Source: Promethearchaeota archaeon (GTDB lineage Archaea; Asgardarchaeota; Lokiarchaeia; Sigyniarchaeales; SOKP01). Taken from it: DNA of 29,744 nucleotides. The position numbers and the translations under genes were made by a program. Shown here piece by piece: positions 746 to 19,323 of the stretch. Location: positions 1 through 29,744 of the forward strand of contig JAHPZJ010000011.1 in the NCBI GenBank assembly GCA_019058245.1. The letters run 5' to 3'. Below the pieces are notes generated by a model. The model was not told the origin of the DNA. It was given only the letters and a program-made list of their open reading frames with translations, and did no database searches. Position 1 is the stretch's first letter; each line of letters starts with the position of its first letter.

Positions 746-1168
746 ATGGAATATCACCAAAATCCTCATAGAGTCTATTCTATTTTCTACCACTTAATCT
801 TTATAGTGAAATACCGTCAACCTGTTTTTTTAGGCGATATCGGCATAATTGAAGCTGTAAAGACGAAGATTATTCAATTATCAGAGAATTTTGAAGTAAA
901 GGTAGTAGAAATTGAATGTGGTATTGATCACGTTCATTTGTTAAATTCTGCGATACCTATGTTAGATATTCCTAAATATATTAATACAATCAAGGGACAT
1001 TCTTTTCATTTTCTCAAGAAGCACTATAAAACCTTCTTACAAGATAAATTATGGGGGGCTCATTTTTGGAGTCCCAGTTATTTTATTGCTTCTATTGGAA
1101 ATGTATCAATTGATATTCTTAAGCAATACGTTGAGAAACAACGGGGGATGGGTGCTCTTGAACACTAA
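746..1168 (+). CDS. tnpA: IS200/IS605 Y1 HUH transposase TnpA
   Basis: YHLIFIVKYR, HUH motif DHVHLL, LWGAHFWSPSYF and catalytic Tyr in QYVEKQ. Confidence 0.95.
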   Translation: MEYHQNPHRVYSIFYHLIFIVKYRQPVFLGDIGIIEAVKTKIIQLSENFEVKVVEIECGIDHVHLLNSAIPMLDIPKYINTIKGHSFHFLKKHYKTFLQDKLWGAHFWSPSYFIASIGNVSIDILKQYVEKQRGMGALEH

Positions 1169-2321
1169 CAAAGCAATTAAGATTCGGATATACCCTAATG
1201 TTCTTGAACGAGAATTTTTAAACAAGACATTTGGTTGTTGTCGTCTTTTATGGAATCAGATGCTTGCTGAGCGTAATGAAGTGTATCAACAACTTAAAGA
1301 GAATTCTGAAGCTTTAAGAGCTCATAAGTATAAAACCGAAAAGGAATATAAACAAGATTTTAAGTTCATGATAGAAGTAGATAGTAAAGCCTTACAATCT
1401 ACTACTCGGCATCTATTGGAAGCGTTTCAAAAGTTTTTTAAGGGTTTAAAGCAGGCTCGAAAAGTAGGATATCCGAACTTTAAATCAAAGAAACATGAGC
1501 AGGCCTATACTACTTATAACATCAACAACAATATTAAGATTGATTTTACGAAAAAACGAATTAAGCTCCCAAAAATTAAGACATGGATTAAGTATAAAGA
1601 TGATAGGGATTTTGTAGAGCCTATTCGACATGTGACCGTCTCGAAAACCAAAAGCGGAAAGTATTACATATCCATTCTAATTGATGAGGAGCTTGGTATT
1701 ACCCCCTTAGAAGTGATTCATTGTGATGTTATTGCCGCCTTTGACATGTCAGCATCGGAATTCTTAGTGGGGGAAGGGGAGTCTTATTCTAATCCTCGGT
1801 TTTATCGCTCTTCAGAGCCAAAGCTTAAAAAGTTACATCGACAAGTTTCTCGTAAGAAAAAAGGTTCGCAAAATCGCTGGAAAGCAAGGTTAAAATTAGC
1901 TCGTTTGTACGAGAAAATAGCTAATCAAAAGCGCGATTGGACTCATAAGACCGCACTTAAACTTGCAAATACATATGATGCCATAATTCTAGAAGATCTA
2001 AATGTAAAAGGCATGCAACAATTCAATAGCGGGCTTGCTAAATCTGTAAGCTTGGACTTTTCATGGCATCAGTTTAAAAATATTTTAAAATACAAGCTCG
2101 AATGGCGTGGCAAGCACTATCAAGAAGTAGACCGCTTTTTCCCTTCGAGTAAGCTCTGCTCTGTTTGTGGATATAAAAATGAGAATTTAACCTTAGCTTC
2201 ACGTGAATGGACTTGTACTGAATGTGACATGCATCATCATCGAGATAAAAATGCCTCAACTAATATTAAAATAGAAGGTATACATCTTTTAGAAGAAAAA
2301 GGGATCAAAGTCATTAGTTGA
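1152..2321 (+). CDS. tnpB: RNA-guided endonuclease TnpB
   Basis: N-terminal KIRIYP/FGCCRLLWN, RuvC residues AFDM, LEDL and HRDKNA, and zinc ribbon CSVC...CTEC. The probable start is GTG 1152 (overlapping the tnpA end) rather than 1086. Confidence 0.95.
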   Translation: MLLNTNKAIKIRIYPNVLEREFLNKTFGCCRLLWNQMLAERNEVYQQLKENSEALRAHKYKTEKEYKQDFKFMIEVDSKALQSTTRHLLEAFQKFFKGLKQARKVGYPNFKSKKHEQAYTTYNINNNIKIDFTKKRIKLPKIKTWIKYKDDRDFVEPIRHVTVSKTKSGKYYISILIDEELGITPLEVIHCDVIAAFDMSASEFLVGEGESYSNPRFYRSSEPKLKKLHRQVSRKKKGSQNRWKARLKLARLYEKIANQKRDWTHKTALKLANTYDAIILEDLNVKGMQQFNSGLAKSVSLDFSWHQFKNILKYKLEWRGKHYQEVDRFFPSSKLCSVCGYKNENLTLASREWTCTECDMHHHRDKNASTNIKIEGIHLLEEKGIKVIS

Positions 2322-4833: not shown

Positions 4834-6774
4834 TTATAGATCTTTTAACTTTTGTTGTTCTTGCTGTATCTTTTTTTCTATTTTTCTCTTTTGTTTTTCA
4901 AACTTTTTTTGCTTTTTTGCTTCCTGTTTCGATTTTTTTTCTTTTTGTTTCCTTTCTTGTTTCAACTTTTCAAGTTCTTGTTTTTGCTTTTCAATAGCCT
5001 CAATTACTTCTTTTTCTTTCTCTAAACGTTCCATTTCTTTTCTGATCTTTTCTTGTTTTTCACTTTCAATTTTTTGCAAGCGTGCCTTTTCTTTTCTAAT
5101 CTCCTCTTGTTTTTCTCTTTCTATTTTTTCTACGCGTTCTCTTTCTAATTGTTCTTGCTTTACTCTTTCATTTTCTTTTCGAATTCTTTCTAGACGTTCT
5201 CTTTCTTGTCTTTCCTTCTCTTGTCTTTCTCTTTCTTTTCGCTCCTTTTCTAATCTTGCTAGTCTTTCTTTTTCTAAACGAATTCTCTCTAGTCTCTCTT
5301 TTTCCTTTCTTTCAATTTCTTCGATTTCAAAAAGCCAACTATCTACTTTTTGAATTAATTCTTGTTTTTCTTTTAAAGGCAATCCAAAGGTTGGTTCTTT
5401 TTTTATGTAAATATTAGCATATTTACTCATCTCCCATATTTTTGTCTGATGTGTTTTGGTAGAACTCACACCAATTTGTCTCATAATTTCCCTAGCAATT
5501 TCAAATGCTTGTCCGATCAATCTCATTTCGTAATTTTCTTCAATTACTTTTTTTAAATATAAAAGAATTTGTTTAGTATCAGCGTTAGGTGGATTAGGTA
5601 ATTGCTTAAATTCAACTTTTTCAGATTTTAATGTTTCTAATTCAAATTTTTCTTGTTTGTAGTCTTTTACTTCAGCTCCTCCAATATCAGAATTTTGAAT
5701 GTTATTTTGTAGGTGAATGGGTTGTTCTACTATTTTAGGTAAAACTGATTGTTCTTTTTTTGCTTTTCTCTTGAATTGTATTGGCCAACTGATAAATGAA
5801 TATAGGCGATCTTCTGCAGATGCAAAAATCGAATGTTTAGAAGTCTTACCAGTAGTCAAATCTCTTTGTTCTGAAGAAACTTGTAGTATACCAGAATTTA
5901 ACATTGTTGCTGCTTTTTCAAATATAGAAAATAAATTCATCTGATCAAACTCAAGATTAGAATAAATATTTTTCAAAGAGTCTATTTTGCTTTCTATTAT
6001 GCTAAGATTTTCAACAGAGATAGTTTCTTGCAAATGTTGATCTGCTGCAGAGATTATCCCATCTAATCCTGCTGTTGAATTTAGGTAAGAAGATTCGAAT
6101 TTTTCTTTCATTTTATTAGAAACTAAAATCTGATTATAGAAATCCCAATGTGTACTCAATATCATATGTCCATCTTCAGCAATATTATAAGAATCGTGTT
6201 TACGAAGACTTTCCATTAAATCCAAGAATATATCTTTATTAGGTATGAAAACATTTCTCATTATAGCACCCTTTATGAAGGTTATATGTTCTTCTGTTTT
6301 ATAAGACAAATCGATGGGGATTTTAATCACTTTTTCTGCTATGACAACATCTCGATCTTCTTCTAAGGTGACATTTTGTGAAGTAGCCATGTGATCATAA
6401 ACAAAATCTGTTAGTACTAACCCGGTTAGAACTCTTTTATCGGTAATATATTTACTTGACTCTAATTCGAATTTGAGGTAATAATATCCTAAACCAAAAA
6501 GGTAATGAAGTGTTCCTTTTGCGGTCTCAATTGAATAATCATAACCGCTTAAAAATATAACGGGATCTGAGATTATTTTTGATACGGGGTGATGAACGTA
6601 GGTTCCTAATGTAGGATAACCTAATAAATCACTCCAACTTGGGATCATAAAAAGAGAGTTATTGGGAAATAGTTTATTCTCTATTTTTTGTTTTTCAATT
6701 CTTTCTTTTTCTAACCTTTCCCTTTCCAATCTTTCTTTTTCTAGTTGTTCCGGGTTTTCATTTTCCATTCCCAT
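4834..6774 (-). CDS. Hypothetical protein: globular N-terminal domain + long E/R/K-rich C-terminal helix
   Basis: 646-aa ORF. The last ~160 aa are almost entirely E/K/R/Q, and there is a short similar repeat at the N-terminus. Confidence 0.8.
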   Translation of the reverse strand: MGMENENPEQLEKERLERERLEKERIEKQKIENKLFPNNSLFMIPSWSDLLGYPTLGTYVHHPVSKIISDPVIFLSGYDYSIETAKGTLHYLFGLGYYYLKFELESSKYITDKRVLTGLVLTDFVYDHMATSQNVTLEEDRDVVIAEKVIKIPIDLSYKTEEHITFIKGAIMRNVFIPNKDIFLDLMESLRKHDSYNIAEDGHMILSTHWDFYNQILVSNKMKEKFESSYLNSTAGLDGIISAADQHLQETISVENLSIIESKIDSLKNIYSNLEFDQMNLFSIFEKAATMLNSGILQVSSEQRDLTTGKTSKHSIFASAEDRLYSFISWPIQFKRKAKKEQSVLPKIVEQPIHLQNNIQNSDIGGAEVKDYKQEKFELETLKSEKVEFKQLPNPPNADTKQILLYLKKVIEENYEMRLIGQAFEIAREIMRQIGVSSTKTHQTKIWEMSKYANIYIKKEPTFGLPLKEKQELIQKVDSWLFEIEEIERKEKERLERIRLEKERLARLEKERKERERQEKERQERERLERIRKENERVKQEQLERERVEKIEREKQEEIRKEKARLQKIESEKQEKIRKEMERLEKEKEVIEAIEKQKQELEKLKQERKQKEKKSKQEAKKQKKFEKQKRKIEKKIQQEQQKLKDL

Positions 6775-7069: not shown

Positions 7070-8458
7070 TTACTTTTTTCGATATTTTAATTTGAGTAAT
7101 ATAATTAGAGTGGCAGAGAACAAACATAGAATAATTATCATATTATATCCTGGAATTGAATTAGTATCTTGGTTATTATCAGAATCATCATTATCAACAG
7201 AATTTTGATTATCGAAAGATGGAAAAGATGGATTTTTAATCAAAACAAGATCTGAGCTACGATTTAAATTAAAGCTTGAGGAATCGCCTGCTATATAGAT
7301 ATCATCTGTTGCTCTATTAATAGTAATAGCGTGTCCAGCTTCAATATCCCCTCCACCCCAAAGAGTTTCAGAAAGTAGGATACCATAACTGTTAAATTTA
7401 CCAATATAAATATTTTCTAAACCCCAACCATCAATAGTACCCTCTCCAACAAAATATATGTTATCTTCTGAATCTACATCAACTCCTGTTCCATAATCCA
7501 TATTTTCACGCCCCCAAATTTTACTCCATAATGTACTTCCATTTATATCAAACTTTATAAGGACAAAATTAATGTTATATACTCCAGCTCCAGCCATTAG
7601 ATCATTTGGATAGTAGGTCCATCCTGCGACATAGATATTATTCATTGAATCGACAGCACAGTCATATCCTCTATCTATTGTGGAACTTCCCCATGTTGTA
7701 TTCCAAATAAGACTTCCAGTAGGAGAATAGTATAAAACAAACACATCTGTACTACCAGCGCCATAACTACTAGTTTGTCCACTTATTACGATATTCCCGG
7801 TTGAAGTTTTTTCAATACCAGAGGCGGTCTCACTGTTTAAACCTCCCCAATTCAAAGCAAATTGTAAATCACCAGAACTATTGTATTTTAAATATAAAGA
7901 ATTTCTCCCATGGGTTGCATTATCACAAAATCCTGCGACATAAACATTAAAATTAGAATCCACTAGTACGTCACTCGCACTGTCATAACCAGATGTTCCC
8001 CAAGTCCTATTCCACAGTAATGTCCCATCCTCATTATATTTAGCAATAAAACAATCACCATTAATTAAATCAGTTCCGAAACTTTTAGTAAATCCAACTA
8101 AGTATACATTATTTTCTGAGTCAGTACATCCTCCATTTCCATGATCCATACTTGATCCTCCCCACTGCCTTTCCCATATAAGAGTACCATTAACATTATA
8201 TTTTAATAAGGTTGCATTAGTAGCCCCATTATCTGACATTATTGTACCAATTAAATAAGAATTATTGCTGATATCGACAGCACAATCCCATGCTTCATCT
8301 GTTTCATTTCCACCGTATGTAACATACCAGTCAACTGTTGAAAGTTCTGTGATATTAAACGCCTGCGATTTTGGAAGTAAAAAAAGAAAAGACACCAAAA
8401 ATAAAATTGATATTAATGCTATATTAATACTTTTAAGATTATTTACCTTAGTTTTCAT
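7070..8458 (-). CDS. Surface beta-propeller (SBBP-repeat) protein with Loki-CTERM-like anchor
   Basis: Signal peptide; ~7 repeats of WxxxWGGxxxDxGxxxxVDSxxNxYxxG; D/N-rich linker; C-terminal IPGY + TM + KLKYRKK. Confidence 0.85.
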   Translation of the reverse strand: MKTKVNNLKSINIALISILFLVSFLFLLPKSQAFNITELSTVDWYVTYGGNETDEAWDCAVDISNNSYLIGTIMSDNGATNATLLKYNVNGTLIWERQWGGSSMDHGNGGCTDSENNVYLVGFTKSFGTDLINGDCFIAKYNEDGTLLWNRTWGTSGYDSASDVLVDSNFNVYVAGFCDNATHGRNSLYLKYNSSGDLQFALNWGGLNSETASGIEKTSTGNIVISGQTSSYGAGSTDVFVLYYSPTGSLIWNTTWGSSTIDRGYDCAVDSMNNIYVAGWTYYPNDLMAGAGVYNINFVLIKFDINGSTLWSKIWGRENMDYGTGVDVDSEDNIYFVGEGTIDGWGLENIYIGKFNSYGILLSETLWGGGDIEAGHAITINRATDDIYIAGDSSSFNLNRSSDLVLIKNPSFPSFDNQNSVDNDDSDNNQDTNSIPGYNMIIILCLFSATLIILLKLKYRKK

Positions 8459-9656: not shown

Positions 9657-10814
9657 TTACTTTCGGTAAGTCCCATAAGTTTTGCAGGTGTCTATCATGG
9701 TTTTAACATTCTCCAGTTTGGCGTCATCAGGGATTTCAGAACCTACGAATAATCCACCACCCTCAGCACATTTATCAATTATTTCTTTAGTCTGTTTCTC
9801 AACCATAGTTGGAGTTCCTATTGTGAATAAGGAAGGTTTTAAATTTCCTTGGATACACATATGATCACCGAGTATTTCTTTTGCCTTGAATATATCAGTT
9901 CGTTCATCCATATGCATATAAATCTTTCCTTTAGGTAGTTCTCTCAAATAATGTAATCGATCTGTCCAACTAGTATCCATATGAAGCTGTACAATGAAGC
10001 CATCGTTTACATACTTTGAAACCATTTTTTTAAAATATGGCCAAAATAGTTCTTCGAAATGTTTGATTGAAATGAAATCTGCACTTGCTCTCACAGCTCC
10101 AACTAAAATTGTTTTTCCTTGACTCATGGAAACACCATACTCTCCCATTAAAATTAAATTATCTATCAGAAATTCACTTACTTCTTTAATTTTGTCAGGG
10201 TATCGGTATACATCTTTCATAAAGTTAGTTGATCCTCGAAAAACTGAAAGTAAATCAAATGGGGGAGTTGCAGCTCCATCACTAAAAGTTGGAACTTTAA
10301 AATGTGTCCACCATCTTATGGTATTTTCAGCTACTTTTGCTCCAATTTTACTTAATCTTTGCATATCTTTCATTCCTGCCCTTCTGAAATTTGCAAGCCA
10401 TAATAATCCATCTTCAATTATTTTATCATAGTCTTTTTCAGTGATAAAAGGATCGCTAAGACTTTGTTCGACAAGTTGAGGTGATGCATTTACATCTAAC
10501 ATACGACCAGGTAATCTCCAATCAAGATAGTAAACAGAAAAGAAGTCTGGAAAGGGATTTATATATTGCATATACATTCCTCCTCCAGCAATTGCAATAT
10601 CATAACCTCCTAATTTATGATAAATCCATTCAGTTGCTTGTTGAGATTTTTCAGGATCTTCAATCATTTCTTGTGCTGTTATATTATAGTATTTTGTAGG
10701 GAGGAAGTCTATTAAAGGCCAAACAGGGACTCTATCAGGCTCCTTTAATTCCATCGCAGTTAATACTCTCTCAACCGAGGTCATAGATTCTTCCTTAATA
10801 GGTTCAAACTCCAT
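9657..10814 (-). CDS. Uroporphyrinogen decarboxylase / MtaA-like corrinoid methyltransferase family protein
   Basis: TSVERVLTAMELKEPDRVPV, PFDLLSVFRG, DIFKAKEILGDHMCIQGNL and IPDDAKLENV. ATG 10814 follows a GAGGTGA RBS, and the gene sits next to a corrinoid protein gene. Confidence 0.85.
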   Translation of the reverse strand: MEFEPIKEESMTSVERVLTAMELKEPDRVPVWPLIDFLPTKYYNITAQEMIEDPEKSQQATEWIYHKLGGYDIAIAGGGMYMQYINPFPDFFSVYYLDWRLPGRMLDVNASPQLVEQSLSDPFITEKDYDKIIEDGLLWLANFRRAGMKDMQRLSKIGAKVAENTIRWWTHFKVPTFSDGAATPPFDLLSVFRGSTNFMKDVYRYPDKIKEVSEFLIDNLILMGEYGVSMSQGKTILVGAVRASADFISIKHFEELFWPYFKKMVSKYVNDGFIVQLHMDTSWTDRLHYLRELPKGKIYMHMDERTDIFKAKEILGDHMCIQGNLKPSLFTIGTPTMVEKQTKEIIDKCAEGGGLFVGSEIPDDAKLENVKTMIDTCKTYGTYRK

Positions 10815-10816
10815 TC

Positions 10817-11458
10817 TTATCTCACCTCTAACCATGATTTTACAATCTTTAGACCTTCAAAGGCATTATCAGTAAAAGCATCAGCACCAGCTTCTTTCAT
10901 CCACATCTCATCAGCAGGTAAACCACCAATAATTATTTTCAATGTATCTCTTAATCCAGCAGCAATTAATGCTTCGGTGGTTTGTTTCATCGCTTCAAGT
11001 GCAATGGTTAACAATCCAGAGTAACCAACAACATTAGCATTTGTCTCTTTTACTTTACTGACAAATACTTCAGGGGAAATATCAACTCCTAAATCATATA
11101 CTTCAAATCCAGCTGATTTTAAAAGAGTTACAAAAATATTTTTACCAATATCATGAACATCACCTTTAACTGTACCTACAACTATAACTCCTTTAGTTTT
11201 TTCTTTAACAATATCAACTTTTAGTGCGGGTTCAATTATTTTTGCAGACTGTTGAAAAATTTCTCCAGCCATAACTAATTCTGAAAGGAAATATTCTTTT
11301 TCATTAAATTTTTCACCAACGATTTCTACAGCTTTACGTAGTATATCAATAATTTCTTGTGCATCATTTTTTTCTTCTAATAATTGTTTAACTAACTTGT
11401 AAACTTTTTCTTCTTCTAATTCTACAATACTTTCCATCAATTCTTCCTTTTTACTCAT
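10817..11458 (-). CDS. Cobalamin-binding corrinoid protein (MtaC/MtbC/MttC-like)
   Basis: B12 cap domain (EYFLSELVMAGE), DxHxxG motif GDVHDIGKN, SGLLT and IIGG. Confidence 0.92.
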   Translation of the reverse strand: MSKKEELMESIVELEEEKVYKLVKQLLEEKNDAQEIIDILRKAVEIVGEKFNEKEYFLSELVMAGEIFQQSAKIIEPALKVDIVKEKTKGVIVVGTVKGDVHDIGKNIFVTLLKSAGFEVYDLGVDISPEVFVSKVKETNANVVGYSGLLTIALEAMKQTTEALIAAGLRDTLKIIIGGLPADEMWMKEAGADAFTDNAFEGLKIVKSWLEVR

Positions 11459-11769: not shown

Positions 11770-14700
11770 TTAAATACTTAATTCTGCACCACAAAATCTA
11801 CAATGGTTAGAGCTTTTACTATTTATTTTCTTGCATGTTGGACATATTTTTCCTGATTCATATCTTTTACCCAAAAGAAGAGATTCACCACAATGTTCGC
11901 AATAATTCCCCCCCAGTGGAGTAGGTGCTTTACAGTGAGGGCAGTTTATTAGGTGATCTAAGACGACATCTGTATCTAGTTTATATTTCTTTCGATATAA
12001 GGCCATAAAGAACCCAATGACCGATAGAATTCCAATTAGGAAGGGTAATAACAAGAGTATTCCTTGTCCCGCATACACGCTTAAATCACTGGCAAATATA
12101 ATAGTAAAGGTAATTATTGTCAAAAAGAGCAAACCTTTTCTTCCCACTTTCCCAGTGAGGTTAGATATTGAGCTTTCCTTTCGCTCCAATAGTGTTAAAG
12201 GATTTTCGTTGAAATTTTCACCCGTAATTAGATCCTTTTTTACTCGTTTTGCAGATTTGTAGGTAGAGAAGGTAAGTACGATTATAGAAGTGAAAAAGGC
12301 TGCTAAGACTGTAAATAATGCACGAGGTACGCTAAATACCCCAATATTATAAGATTGTTCGTTGAGTCGAACTCTCCACCATGCAAAAGTATTTCCTACA
12401 AAAAATATTGATAAAATCCCCATAAGTATCAATATAGCTGAGATCACCAGCCAAATTTTTACATCAAACACAGAAGCATCTTCTTTATTAAGAATTAATT
12501 TTTCAACAAGATAGTTTGAAGAAAATCCCCATAAAATTATAGAACATAAAAATTCAGTTACAAATAAAAGCATACTGAGAGTAGCGAGATTCAAGAGGAG
12601 GAGGGAAACCAATCCCATGGTAAAAAGAGCTCCAATTAACAATAAATTCAATTCTAAAATTAAAGAATACTTTTTTAAAGCGATAGTTTCAACCCCTTTC
12701 TGTTCCCTAATTGTAACAGTGGTTAATTTGTCATCGTCAACATTTTTATCATTTAAGGATTCTTCAGTCATCACATTAGAAAGACTTTCCCGCAATTTCT
12801 TTTGGTATTTTTTTCTTTTAAATAATGTTGAATATACTATCCCCGAAACAATCCCTACGATTAAGGAAACCAACACCAAGATTGTTTGCTCAATGATACT
12901 CATCTCCCATGATGGTAACGCAGGAATCAATGAGATGGTACGAGCTTGTCCTAGTGAAATGTTATTTCCATAAATATCTACTGCAAATACTTCATATGTA
13001 AGTTGGGTTACATCTGAAGAAAAGGAGGTAAATATGAATTTATATAAGTTACCAGAACCAGTTAAATTATCTAAGATTACTCCATTTCCATCATCGAATT
13101 CATATTCTATGTAGATATAACTGATGTATTGATTATATTGGGATACTAAAATACTGACTTCAAAAGAAGATTCTATATCTAAATCCAGAACTAATGGAGG
13201 CTCTTGTTCTTCTTCAAGAATTATAGTTGGACGTGAGAGAGATAGTTCTTCTATAGTAAAATTCTCTCCTTCATCACTTTGGAACATCAATCGATAATTA
13301 GCATTTATGTGCACAAGATCATGTGTAATAGGTATACTAAAAGAAGTATTTAGAGCATCCATCGCATTGATTGGAATATCAGGCTGCAAAATACCATCAA
13401 AAGTTCGACTTAACCAAACTAATTTGATGTGAGATGTACCAGATGTGAAGATATAAGTCCATGTCCAATCATCGTATAATGTTGGAGATATAGCTCCAGA
13501 TTCTTTTATATACTCAAAAATCCCTTTATCGTAACTGTATAATAGACCATTGTTATCCACTTCAAATAAATTCCCACACAAATCGTAAATTTCAGCTTTC
13601 CAATAGACAATTGTAATATTATCTGTTTGCGCTGGAATAATTGCAGTATAATTAATATAAGGGAGTGTAGAGTTATCTAATGTCATATTAATAATTTGCC
13701 AATCATCTACTGGAGTTCGATAATGAAGGTATCCTTTACCAGGGTTTATCTCATAAATCGGAATTATTATTGTCACATTTTTAATAGGAAGGGGTTCATA
13801 AGAAGTAATTGCATTTTCATTTATTTGAAAGGCAGGAAGAGTATTGTCAATAAGAAGATCCCCTGATATCATTGATTCATATCCAGCACGATCTATAATA
13901 ATTAAATCCCATGTATAAAGATCGTCTTCAAGAATCTCTCCTGTTCCTGAAATTCCAGAAAATTTAACATTTCCCTGATAATTGTTATCAAGTGGTTTTG
14001 AAATGCTAAACACTAAATTAGAACTACTGGAAGTTACTAATTGAAAGGTTTGTATTATTGCCCCTTTCATAACTCCCGTAACGAAACAGGGAAAGCCTTT
14101 CTCTGGAAAAAACAATTTCCATCTCATCCATGCCACAAATGGATATAGAAAATCTCCTGAAATTTCAGTAAAATTTTGCCAATCTCCAAAAGTTGTACCT
14201 CCAGTAGATACTTTATAGGCAAGGATAGAAGTGAAGTTTTCTAAGTATGGAGGATTTTTTGCTATTGTTGTGAGTACCCATTGATATGTATTATTGTCAA
14301 GTTTGCGAGCTTGAAGATCTGTCGTTTGAGTGTAACCATCTACGTATGGTGGTACTCCATCTACTAATTGATTTCCACTCATAGTTGCTTTACTCCCATT
14401 ATTATTTGTAATAATAGTATGTATTTCTGGATCTTCTATATGAGCGATCAGAAAAGAATAATTACCTGTAATTGGATCATGGGCTGCGGCTTCAAGGGAA
14501 TAGTTAACAGAGTGATCAGGAGTAGTTATATTAATAAAAGATTTAAATGTAAAACCCAAATCATTAGAAACATTAATTTCAAAATTATTGATATCTGTAG
14601 CACCTCCAAGCCAGCATTTCAAATCGCGTGTAATTCCTTGGACGGGCCTAGGTAATTCTGATTGAATAAAACTCTCTCCTCCGTCTGAAGAAGTAAATAC

Positions 14701-16575
14701 GCTTCCATCAGAAGTACCATCTGTATGGGTCCATAAATAGATATTATTACTTTTGACAGTCGCACGTAATAAACCCCAATCGGCCTTAATATCACTTTTT
14801 ATAATCCGAGGTTCGCCCCAAGATAGGCCCCCATCAGTTGATTTTGCAATCATAAGATTAGAAATAGTATCCACTTTTTCTGAATAAAATAGATAATTTG
14901 TAATACCATCCCCACATATCGTTGGAAACGAAACGGGATAAATTCCACTCGTAATTTCATAGGTGCTATTTAAGGGATCCTCTGATTTTACATTAAATCT
15001 TAAATCTCCGGGTTTATCAGATTCAACATCAATTGAAAATTGATCTTGATTTCCTGGCGACGCAAAAGGAGAGATTTGGTTATTTGAAACATTATAGGTG
15101 AATTCAGCAGGAATATCATCTACATAAACAATAAGGTCATTTATTAAACCAGTGCCCAGATTATCTATTACTAAATTAAAAGAATATGCTTGTGCGCCAT
15201 GTGTGCTTCCTTGAGTATCTTTTCCATCAAAAACATAACTAAACGTTTCATATGCCTCTATTGATTGATTAAAAAATAGGAGATTGAATGGATTTTCCAC
15301 ATCCAAAATTCCAGGTCCTACCAATCCATTCTCAAATTGGGTTTTTCCTGAAAAACATTTTGTACCATTATCAGCATAAAGATTAAAAGCACCAGATCCC
15401 GAATGTGATTGAAAATAATCTATTTGTTTTTCGTACACATTTGGATCCCCCCACGTGGCATTTCTAATTCCCTGTTCCCTTTCGTCTTCAGTTTGATCTA
15501 CAAAATAAAAAAGCTCTGTGGAATAATCCATAGTGCATTTAACCAACGGTGTACTGATTGTTTTTTTAGTTTTCCCCAAACTTGAAAAAGTAATATTCCA
15601 AGAGCGTAAACGCGTTCCATTTAACCCATTTTCAAATTGTGATATATTAAATTGCATATCATTATCCAATATATCTGGATAATAATTATAGGCCATATAA
15701 AAAGAACCATTTCCATTAGTACGATTATAAAACACCTGAGGTGCTACACATGCCTCACCTTCTAAAGCGGTAAAATTATTTGGTGTAGTCCATCCGCCAT
15801 TCGGATCATATATACAGGTCCAAATCGTAGCTTTATTATAAGCATCTCCAGTAACATTTGAAATGCTCCAAGCAGCTGTAAAGTTCCCATCAAATGCAGA
15901 CATTGACAACCCGTAAAATTCCAAAGTATCCCATCCCGTGCAATTCATCAACGTGCCATTCGTCCATGTTTTTCCCCAATCATCACTTGAAAAATACTTC
16001 AATCCATTGAAATTTTCATACACTCCTGATGCTTCTCGATACACCACTTTAATTTCCCCGCTCTCATCTGCTGCTACAGCTATCTCCTCATCATCAGTTG
16101 AATTGACTACTCCAATTTTCTGCCACTGGAAATTGGTCGCATTTGTTCCAATTCCCAACCATAAATCTTTTTTTATCGCTCCTAAAACATTGTCTTTAAC
16201 AACGATTATCCATGTTCCATTCTTCATTAAATAAGAATTTGAATGCAGCGCTTCTCCTATTGATAATACTCCAGGATAATTGTTTATTGGATCATAATAA
16301 CATGAGACCTTCAAGGTAAAATTCTTAGCCTCGTCAATCGCGAATGAATATAAGGTCGTATCGCTAAAATCAGGCGTCTTTTCAGGACTGAAAAATTTAT
16401 TACTTACAGTTGGAAAAAGAAACCAAGATGTGGATTGACTAACCTTAGGAATAGAATGACTCTCAGCCTCTATTTCATCTCCTGTTTGTAGTAGGAGATT
16501 ACTAAATGGAGTGAAACACAACACAATAAACAGACATATAAAAAGAATCGCATATTTTTTTCTAATTATTACCAC
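11770..16575 (-). CDS. Large receptor-like membrane protein: BNR/Asp-box propellers and Ig-like ectodomain, ~7 TM helices, C-terminal double zinc ribbon
   Basis: Signal peptide; Asp-boxes SSDDWGKTW, STDGGLSW, SSDGGESF and SNDLGFTF; seven hydrophobic segments; CPHC/CEHC/CPTC/CRFC at the C-terminus. Confidence 0.8.
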   Translation of the reverse strand: MVIIRKKYAILFICLFIVLCFTPFSNLLLQTGDEIEAESHSIPKVSQSTSWFLFPTVSNKFFSPEKTPDFSDTTLYSFAIDEAKNFTLKVSCYYDPINNYPGVLSIGEALHSNSYLMKNGTWIIVVKDNVLGAIKKDLWLGIGTNATNFQWQKIGVVNSTDDEEIAVAADESGEIKVVYREASGVYENFNGLKYFSSDDWGKTWTNGTLMNCTGWDTLEFYGLSMSAFDGNFTAAWSISNVTGDAYNKATIWTCIYDPNGGWTTPNNFTALEGEACVAPQVFYNRTNGNGSFYMAYNYYPDILDNDMQFNISQFENGLNGTRLRSWNITFSSLGKTKKTISTPLVKCTMDYSTELFYFVDQTEDEREQGIRNATWGDPNVYEKQIDYFQSHSGSGAFNLYADNGTKCFSGKTQFENGLVGPGILDVENPFNLLFFNQSIEAYETFSYVFDGKDTQGSTHGAQAYSFNLVIDNLGTGLINDLIVYVDDIPAEFTYNVSNNQISPFASPGNQDQFSIDVESDKPGDLRFNVKSEDPLNSTYEITSGIYPVSFPTICGDGITNYLFYSEKVDTISNLMIAKSTDGGLSWGEPRIIKSDIKADWGLLRATVKSNNIYLWTHTDGTSDGSVFTSSDGGESFIQSELPRPVQGITRDLKCWLGGATDINNFEINVSNDLGFTFKSFINITTPDHSVNYSLEAAAHDPITGNYSFLIAHIEDPEIHTIITNNNGSKATMSGNQLVDGVPPYVDGYTQTTDLQARKLDNNTYQWVLTTIAKNPPYLENFTSILAYKVSTGGTTFGDWQNFTEISGDFLYPFVAWMRWKLFFPEKGFPCFVTGVMKGAIIQTFQLVTSSSSNLVFSISKPLDNNYQGNVKFSGISGTGEILEDDLYTWDLIIIDRAGYESMISGDLLIDNTLPAFQINENAITSYEPLPIKNVTIIIPIYEINPGKGYLHYRTPVDDWQIINMTLDNSTLPYINYTAIIPAQTDNITIVYWKAEIYDLCGNLFEVDNNGLLYSYDKGIFEYIKESGAISPTLYDDWTWTYIFTSGTSHIKLVWLSRTFDGILQPDIPINAMDALNTSFSIPITHDLVHINANYRLMFQSDEGENFTIEELSLSRPTIILEEEQEPPLVLDLDIESSFEVSILVSQYNQYISYIYIEYEFDDGNGVILDNLTGSGNLYKFIFTSFSSDVTQLTYEVFAVDIYGNNISLGQARTISLIPALPSWEMSIIEQTILVLVSLIVGIVSGIVYSTLFKRKKYQKKLRESLSNVMTEESLNDKNVDDDKLTTVTIREQKGVETIALKKYSLILELNLLLIGALFTMGLVSLLLLNLATLSMLLFVTEFLCSIILWGFSSNYLVEKLILNKEDASVFDVKIWLVISAILILMGILSIFFVGNTFAWWRVRLNEQSYNIGVFSVPRALFTVLAAFFTSIIVLTFSTYKSAKRVKKDLITGENFNENPLTLLERKESSISNLTGKVGRKGLLFLTIITFTIIFASDLSVYAGQGILLLLPFLIGILSVIGFFMALYRKKYKLDTDVVLDHLINCPHCKAPTPLGGNYCEHCGESLLLGKRYESGKICPTCKKINSKSSNHCRFCGAELSI

Positions 16576-17342: not shown

Positions 17343-18317
17343 TTATTTACTTTTTTGTTGGATTAATATATACTTTTTATTTAGTGCTTTTTGGTTTTCT
17401 GGATAATATTCTAAAATTTCATTATAAATTTGTAAAGCTCTATCATATTTGCGTTTTCTTACATATACTTTAGCAATGCCTAATAGGCTTTTCAAATTGA
17501 TTGGATTTATATCTCTTGCGTAAAAAAAGGATTCAAGAGCTTTTTTAAGTCTATTGCCATTCAAATAGTTATAACCAAATTTAATCCATATATTTTCATC
17601 TAAAATTAATTTAAATAATTCTTCTCTTTCCTCTTTATTAAAATAATCTAAATAGCCAATTTCTATTAAGCATTGTTGCGTAGAAGGATTAAAACTTTCA
17701 AATCGCACTCTAATCTCCTGTTTAAATACTTCTTTTGCAATAGGATCTCCAGCATCGGTTAAGGCATTTAATAATGGAAAAGCCAAATTACTATGTAGTA
17801 ATCGAGGATTATAATTATATTCGGCCCATACCTGCAAATTAGAGCAATGAGCCCAAAACTCGGTCTCAGGAGATATTTTAAACTTATTCTTAGCTTGAAA
17901 TTCTAGTTCAGGATTTAATCTTTCAGCTGCTTCATCAATTGACTCAATATCATCAAAATCTCTGACATTATCAACAGGAATTTTTAATAGTAAATATTTA
18001 CATTGAATGAACTGTTTTCCATTAATATAAATATTGGATGCTTTATCTTCAAGTTTTAATGTGAGATAATCATTGATTTTATATTCTTGTTTTGGACGGT
18101 TTTTTTTTTTCTGTATATAATTAATAAAAGTAACAAAACCGAATTGAGGAATAAAAAGAGCTAATAATATAGAGTAATAAATTAAAGAAGGGGGAATCTG
18201 AAGAATATATCTAAATAATTCTATCGAAAAAATAGGAAGTATTCCAACAAGAATAATATTCTTTATTTTGTTTCTTTTATCCTTTGTTAAAATTACTTTA
18301 CCCAACTTCATTCTCAC
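17343..18317 (-). CDS. Membrane-anchored Lokiarchaeia-type domain protein with C-terminal TPRs
   Basis: Two N-terminal TM helices; domain YKINDYLTLKLE...IESIDEAAE...EFWAHCSNLQVWAE...LLHSNLAFPLL; about two TPRs (ARDINP, ILEYYP). Confidence 0.8.
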   Translation of the reverse strand: MRMKLGKVILTKDKRNKIKNIILVGILPIFSIELFRYILQIPPSLIYYSILLALFIPQFGFVTFINYIQKKKNRPKQEYKINDYLTLKLEDKASNIYINGKQFIQCKYLLLKIPVDNVRDFDDIESIDEAAERLNPELEFQAKNKFKISPETEFWAHCSNLQVWAEYNYNPRLLHSNLAFPLLNALTDAGDPIAKEVFKQEIRVRFESFNPSTQQCLIEIGYLDYFNKEEREELFKLILDENIWIKFGYNYLNGNRLKKALESFFYARDINPINLKSLLGIAKVYVRKRKYDRALQIYNEILEYYPENQKALNKKYILIQQKSK

Positions 18318-18795: not shown

Positions 18796-19323
18796 ATGAC
18801 GGGTTTTAAACTAAAAGTAATATTACGGGGGAACCAAAATATTAGGAGAAAAAGTTTAATTGAAAGAGTAATTGAAAGTAGGTTTGAAAAAAACTATAAA
18901 TTAACTGTAGGTGTTGATATTCTTACAAAAAATGTAGAATATATACATGGAGAAATTGTCACCTTAAGTATATGGGATATAGCTGACCAACATAGATTTG
19001 ATTTTTTTCGTCATCTATTCTATAAAGGAGCTTCTGGAGCAATAATAAATTTTGATTTATCCAAAAAGGGTATGTATAAAGAAGCAATTAAGTGGTTGAT
19101 TGATATTACAAAATACATTGGTTTTATTCCTTTTATGTTAATTGGAAATAATGTTCAATTAATAAAAAAAAAAGAAAAAGAAGATATTCGAGAAGAAGCT
19201 TTTGAATTTGCTAAAGATGAAGGGGGAATCTATATTGAAACATCTCCAAAGAGTGTTAACATTTTAAATGAGGCTCTTCGTGAATTAATTAGAAGAATTA
19301 TGCAAATACACATAAATAATTAA
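18796..19323 (+). CDS. Rab/Ras-like small GTPase homolog with degenerate G motifs
   Basis: YKLTVGVDIL, TLSIWDIADQHRF, FYKGASGAI and YIETSPK are recognisable. The P-loop reads GNQNIRRKS and G4 reads NNVQ. Confidence 0.85.
   Translation: MTGFKLKVILRGNQNIRRKSLIERVIESRFEKNYKLTVGVDILTKNVEYIHGEIVTLSIWDIADQHRFDFFRHLFYKGASGAIINFDLSKKGMYKEAIKWLIDITKYIGFIPFMLIGNNVQLIKKKEKEDIREEAFEFAKDEGGIYIETSPKSVNILNEALRELIRRIMQIHINN

Follow-up and report, generated by a model that had tools for sequence, protein, structure and literature searches.

A 1601-amino-acid (aa) protein of the Promethearchaeota archaeon with assembly GCA_019058245.1 (Lokiarchaeia, Sigyniarchaeales) is a giant surface protein built, in outline, like an adhesion receptor, and its membrane module defines an unannotated family with a six-helix core that matches no known family. 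The gene is located in a stretch of 29,744 nucleotides (nt) (contig JAHPZJ010000011.1, positions 1 to 29,744), referred to as the window throughout. We class the product among surface adhesins or receptors, its membrane core being so far undescribed. By the features tested, it is not a member of the G protein-coupled receptor (GPCR), rhodopsin, 7TMR-DISM, sialidase or Oxa1 families, membership of 7TMR-DISM being judged by profile and output module. A Pfam scan of the protein returned a double zinc ribbon as its sole match. The reading frame is intact: a single contig from a public run, which may be the source of the assembly itself, covers the entire gene without differences, and near-identical fragments from a second study contain no insertions or deletions in it.

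Hydropathy, structure prediction and the match to PF12773 bear out the layout given in a preliminary description of this DNA, namely a giant ectodomain, seven transmembrane (TM) segments and a cytoplasmic double zinc ribbon. The seven C-terminal hydrophobic segments (window 12007-12888) recur as seven conserved peaks in 133 rows of the family alignment and are all helical in the AlphaFold2 model, which is confident (predicted local distance difference test score, pLDDT, of 91). Helix number and topology are based on hydropathy, conservation, charge bias and this model, and all structural statements here refer to predicted models. Lysines and arginines number 30 in the four inferred inner segments, and the three outer loops together hold 3 (averages for the family, 26.3 and 2.1), a bias that supports the N-out/C-in topology proposed earlier. 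TM2 and TM3 form a single hairpin of 50 residues, and TM6 is the shortest helix with 16 strongly hydrophobic residues. The TM5-TM6 inner loop is constant in length (42-48 aa), while the length of the TM1-TM2 linker varies widely. Across the family, core residues W1399, P1417, K1480, F1484 and P1511 are conserved at 90-98%.

A profile built from 19 Lokiarchaeia rows yielded 151 matches among 1.84 billion proteins, of which about 148 are members (clusters), with full-length members of 1350-2500 aa. A deeper core profile was matched by 96 genomes out of 400 from the phylum, or about 91 once five weak matches are set aside, including roughly 18 of 154 in the order of the host and 56 of 89 in the block read as Thorarchaeia; the others were scattered. 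Every named match is from Asgard archaea, the majority of matches being unnamed; named members or their neighbours belong to Lokiarchaeia, Thorarchaeota, Helarchaeota, Njordarchaeia and Asgardarchaeum, and for two genomes to Heimdallarchaeota. The closest relative (80% identical) is itself named Promethearchaeota archaeon, in agreement with the Asgard origin suspected from the letters alone. A quick core tree separated a Lokiarchaeia branch with the zinc ribbon from the remainder without it (Shimodaira-Hasegawa-like approximate likelihood ratio test, SH-aLRT, 92). This distribution would fit an old family with patchy loss. At least four ectodomain groups were distinguished by sequence similarity (BNR, FG-GAP plus immunoglobulin (Ig), Helarchaeales type and Ig-rich type), and the comparison of sequences shows the core as the constant part and the ectodomains as exchangeable. 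No fused enzymatic output domain was detected in the members scanned, as had been stated for the protein itself, and a paralogue of the membrane region was not found in its own genome. We found no paper on this family in the literature searched, and one may still exist. At one locus (L061, G152:C191), two full-length genes of the family lie in tandem on either side of a hydrolase gene, and just one of them encodes the zinc ribbon.

The organization of the module was revealed by relatives in which it is divided between genes. In genome G046, a secreted protein of 941 aa has TM1 followed by a short basic tail at its C-terminus; TM2-TM7 and the zinc ribbon are encoded by the following gene, which lies 4 nt downstream. 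An ENA contig shows the same junction, with only the tail of the upstream gene preserved, and in GCA_975967135.1 (L129) two ectodomain-TM1 genes (942 and 1006 aa, 60% identical) precede one core gene. The split thus lies directly after TM1 at each of these three loci, which come from different assemblies; the genes on either side of it are 1-4 nt apart. Because the N-termini of the three split core genes are related and the genes group in a single clade (SH-aLRT 100), they reflect one real evolutionary event and not three errors. The split ectodomains are homologous to fused members of the Helarchaeales type (E 1e-35 to 1e-62). TM1 therefore belongs to the ectodomain, is encoded separately in some relatives, and the architecture is 1+6 and not an indivisible seven-helix bundle. 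Its signature, a Pro followed by Ser, Gly and Tyr that share a helix face, is found in each of the three split ectodomain proteins examined, as well as in 83 of 100 rows of the family; none of 20 ordinary single-pass Ig surface proteins of Lokiarchaeia has the signature, and all 20 are without the six-helix core. Judging by this pattern, TM1 may dock on the core, and the core of the split clade is probably a separate subunit able to serve more than one head. The split core gene at L129:6001-7320 carries an additional C-terminal helix-hairpin-helix domain (HHH_5, E 1.2e-7) beyond the zinc ribbon, and L127:3292-4335 encodes a core with zinc ribbon and no ectodomain gene upstream, either a stand-alone core or a remnant.

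The ectodomain contains 36 N-x-S/T sequons versus 15.1 +/- 3.4 in shuffled sequences, and none of 2000 shuffles reached 36, which confirms the sequon richness noted before. N-glycosylation at N-x-S/T is documented for a cultured relative (PMC11284389), and the surface protein is probably sugar-coated as well. The head consists of two propellers, both with a sialidase fold and Asp-boxes, corresponding to the six-bladed Asp-box propeller of GH33. The arginine triad that accompanies the catalytic Tyr, Glu and Asp of GH33 sialidases was absent as judged by alignment, which gave no conserved arginine in either propeller even across 18 close relatives, and both propellers appear to be non-catalytic. 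Compared with GH33 sialidases and GH93 arabinanase, identity is only 9-14%, and the propellers are duplicated and mounted on a membrane module. The fold and the Asp-boxes are what would be expected of a membrane-tethered glycosidase of sialidase or arabinanase type feeding on surface glycans. We give this almost no credence, as no arginine is conserved, FG-GAP propellers replace those of sialidase fold in other clades, and the core would be left unexplained. The Foldseek list for the ectodomain was headed by Vps10p-domain receptors (sortilin, SorCS2) and the ROS1/Sevenless/LRP ectodomains, which likewise interleave non-catalytic beta-propellers with Ig/FN3-like domains. Vps10p propellers are of the Asp-box type. 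Since whole-chain TM-scores to the sortilin/ROS1-type receptors are 0.10-0.16, the likeness is one of domain content and not of architecture; moreover, those receptors are single-pass. Below the head, the fold of the stalk was assigned from secondary structure. The domain preceding TM1 is paralogous to the rest of the stalk domains, and the middle one is absent in some relatives.

The topology invites comparison with adhesion GPCRs (class B2, such as ADGRF1 and the latrophilins, with 7tm_2 plus GAIN/GPS), which share a large adhesive ectodomain (here with predicted glycosylation), seven helices in N-out/C-in orientation, a long TM5-TM6 inner loop and the lack of a catalytic output. These same features would be expected of a true, highly diverged GPCR homologue, a proto-adhesion-GPCR. 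However, the model does not have the fold of GPCRs (classes A, B2 and T). TM-scores against GPCR chains were 0.14-0.31 with root-mean-square deviations of 11-15.7 A and no superposition; the values were 0.17/0.22 for ADGRF1 (deviation 18.3) and 0.12/0.20 for bacteriorhodopsin. None of the 133 rows has a D/ERY motif after TM3 or an NPxxY motif in TM7, both hallmarks of class A, or a retinal-binding Lys in TM7, and a Cys in the TM4-TM5 loop, as needed for the disulfide between TM3 and the second extracellular loop, occurs in one. The GPS motif is absent from the protein, and among 100 pre-TM1 segments 3 have H[LM][TS] and 2 have two Cys. Moreover, TM1 is separable from the six-helix core, and no G-alpha match (PF00503) above the cut-off was found in the host genome, which is 76% complete. 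In a recent preprint (10.64898/2026.10.28.762692), some Asgard-eukaryote structural clusters carry a GPCR annotation, and a tie to the six-helix-core family could not be made. Homology to GPCRs is barely credible and largely refuted at the level of the model. The GPCR reading thus fails, and the caution of the preliminary description that topology alone does not show homology, as well as its failure to see a GPS/GAIN motif, proved justified. Bacterial 7TMR-DISM and 7TM-HD receptors also combine an extracellular ligand-binding domain with seven helices. Unlike those, which carry kinase, cyclase or HD outputs, members of the Asgard family that were scanned have no catalytic tail; 114 core rows gave no Pfam match to either type, and neither was among the NCBIfam families or the fold-search matches listed.

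A different origin for the core was suggested by the first profile, which matched TMCO1 (E 9e-4). In the Oxa1 superfamily, whose own core comprises three TM helices and a coiled coil, the order of elements is the same as that of TM5, hairpin, TM6 and TM7, and the core of the split clade is co-encoded with what would be its clients. The core could then be a private biogenesis factor, an insertase or chaperone like Oxa1, EMC3 or TMCO1, for its own giant ectodomain subunit. We consider this highly improbable: the TMCO1 match fell to E 0.038 with a deeper profile and disappeared with the core alone, hhalign against 30 EMC3/TMCO1 proteins of Asgard archaea reached 19%, no more than unrelated core halves score against each other (18-26%), and the genome has a separate EMC3/TMCO1 gene. 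The Oxa1 superfamily (EMC3/TMCO1/GET1/YidC) was not among the matches listed in fold searches of the model. It is also improbable that several cores surround a pore and act as a ligand- or force-gated channel or transporter gated by the ectodomain.

The bundle and the zinc ribbons had been proposed as a signalling route. Both are present, but the bundle is divisible and the ribbon is confined to the Lokiarchaeia branch, being absent from the other half of the family. As a Lokiarchaeia-only accessory, it is not the general output of the family. Its cysteines are 87-100% conserved among rows having the tail. Zinc ribbon matches number 31 in the host genome and are frequent as tails, so little about function can be read from the ribbon.

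Taken together, we favour, at a probability of about 0.45, a modular surface receptor or adhesin in which TM1 docks on the six-helix core, and the core in turn offers a partner its cytoplasmic TM5-TM6 hairpin of fixed length. An exchangeable, N-glycosylated head would bind to another cell or surface through a glycan or protein displayed there; the propeller fold of the head rests on the model, and ligand binding would be a property of the propellers. A stalk of three Ig domains would keep the head away from the membrane and end in TM1, which, going by conservation, would pack via its Ser/Gly/Tyr face on the core. Load or binding could then move TM1 and the outer loop with its conserved Trp and Pro, thereby shifting the long hairpin, whose conserved lysines and arginines might recruit in trans a partner from the cytoplasm. 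The double zinc ribbon of Lokiarchaeia members may offer a second interaction surface. Signalling by the seven-helix protein is an inference; in outline, the protein would work like an adhesion GPCR or a two-subunit receptor. A bolder and rather doubtful extension would make the core a subunit of new fold, already present in the ancestor of Asgard archaea, that transduces signals: it would bind TM1 of adhesive heads that can be swapped, whether fused to it or supplied in trans, and pass contact on to a cytoplasmic effector such as a small GTPase, a cytoskeletal protein or a protein of the ubiquitin system. If true, such a receptor system would have converged on adhesion GPCRs and two-subunit immune-type receptors while being unrelated to either.

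Several points weigh against such a receptor. No ligand, partner or signalling gene is linked across 21 loci, the neighbourhoods of which differ save among close Thorarchaeia kin, and the family is patchy in the order of the host and therefore not essential. Within the membrane, the core has few conserved polar residues (S1430, partly H/Q1379). The 83% figure for the TM1 signature is partly circular, because the signature was derived from the family itself, and the conserved multi-helix base could be purely structural. The protein may instead be a non-signalling adhesin or envelope protein whose core serves as a mechanical foot that does not switch state: it would cluster the giant ectodomain, keep it from being pulled out or link it to the cytoskeleton. 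This would agree with the lack of a linked output gene, with Thorarchaeia members that often have nearly no C-terminal tail, and with the frequency of propeller, Ig stalk and membrane anchor on Lokiarchaeia surfaces. Nerearchaeum marumarumayae has many such anchored proteins, with a signal sequence, a propeller head, an Ig/fibronectin stalk and a single-pass anchor like the layout here, and irregular T-shaped densities about 12 nm from its membrane (10.1101/2025.07.22.663070). The single-pass surface proteins of Lokiarchaeia also have a last Ig domain related to that of the 1601-aa protein. Nevertheless, we hold a mere foot to be somewhat unlikely, as hundreds of Ig-stalk proteins in Lokiarchaeia have one TM helix only, and a fixed-length hairpin with near-invariant residues across Asgard classes exceeds what an anchor needs.

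To our knowledge, no contact receptor is established in Asgard archaea, where the sensing and holding of syntrophic partners bears on the origin of eukaryotes. The family is a defined candidate for such a receptor, with a conserved core over several Asgard classes and exchangeable heads, and in its natural split form the small core (about 230-340 aa) should lend itself to expression and structure determination. The family also warns that a large ectodomain with seven helices in an Asgard genome is not in itself a proto-GPCR.

Table 1 Features of the gene and its product in the window
Feature	Position	Strand	Remarks
Whole gene	11770..16575	(-)	1601 aa, GTG start
Putative signal peptide or signal anchor, residues about 1-31	16486..16575	(-)	Hydropathy; similar N-termini in many relatives
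Ectodomain module 1, residues about 50-490	15106..16428	(-)	Ig-like (FlgD-type) domain with inserted sialidase-fold propeller
Module 1 propeller, about 92-429	15289-16302	(-)	One Asp-box
Ectodomain module 2, residues about 491-915	13831..15105	(-)	Duplicate of module 1
Module 2 propeller, about 535-852	14020-14973	(-)	Three Asp-boxes, no conserved Arg
Stalk, three related all-beta Ig/FN3-like domains, residues about 916-1221	12913..13830	(-)	hhalign 96-97% to third domain
TM1 (1230-1250)	12826..12888	(-)	Near-invariant Pro (P1221) before; conserved face S1237/G1241/Y1248
Basic cytoplasmic linker TM1-TM2	12670..12825	(-)	Length highly variable; natural gene-split site in relatives
TM2, TM3 and TM4 of six-helix core	12394..12669	(-)	Conservation, model
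Outer loop TM4-TM5	12322..12393	(-)	Short helix with W1399 (91%), beta-hairpin, P1417 (96%)
TM5, cytoplasmic helical hairpin and TM6	12088..12321	(-)	K/R1466, K/R1472 and K1480 conserved; F1484 98%
TM7	12007..12066	(-)	P1511 (98%); without Lys, without NPxxY
Double zinc ribbon, four CxxC	11788..11943	(-)	Pfam DZR PF12773, E 1.7e-6, 28.5 bits vs cut-off 27.3

The gene is solitary, flanked by a corrinoid-protein/methyltransferase pair and a divergent NYN gene, and its neighbours are not conserved across Lokiarchaeia. Candidate partner genes were rejected as they failed their controls. The pair directly downstream (window 9657-11458, reverse strand) encodes a corrinoid (B12-binding) protein and a URO-D-family protein, probably a methyltransferase of MtaA/CmuA type. 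On the same strand, 3 kb downstream, lies a gene for a second secreted beta-propeller protein (7070-8458, SBBP repeats, 462 aa). At 17343-18317 (reverse strand), a protein with N-terminal hydrophobic segments and C-terminal TPR repeats is encoded, with a domain that we take to resemble an LRR-associated module of Lokiarchaeia. A Ras-family small GTPase (18796-19323, forward strand) has a degenerate P-loop, GNQNIRRKS for GxxxxGKS, and is possibly nucleotide-free or altered.

Further away, a 646-aa protein (4834-6774, reverse strand) without Pfam match has a long charged coiled-coil tail and a highly conserved N-terminal domain, which 116 of 154 genomes from the order encode, frequently in two paralogous copies; in genomes G075 and G081, the short paralogue precedes a gene presumed to be profilin-like. 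An IS200/IS605-type element (746-2321, forward strand) comprises a TnpA-like open reading frame recognized by eye (746-1168), followed by TnpB (1086-2321; Pfam OrfB_IS605, Cas12f1-like TNB). Finally, a widespread single-pass Ig-stalk family of Lokiarchaeia (loci L133, L134, L137, L140, L141 and L144-L148) has the juxtamembrane motif EIFPGMP before and IPKxVK after the TM segment and a conserved cytoplasmic tail, to which the member at L140 adds a further cytoplasmic extension of 400 aa.

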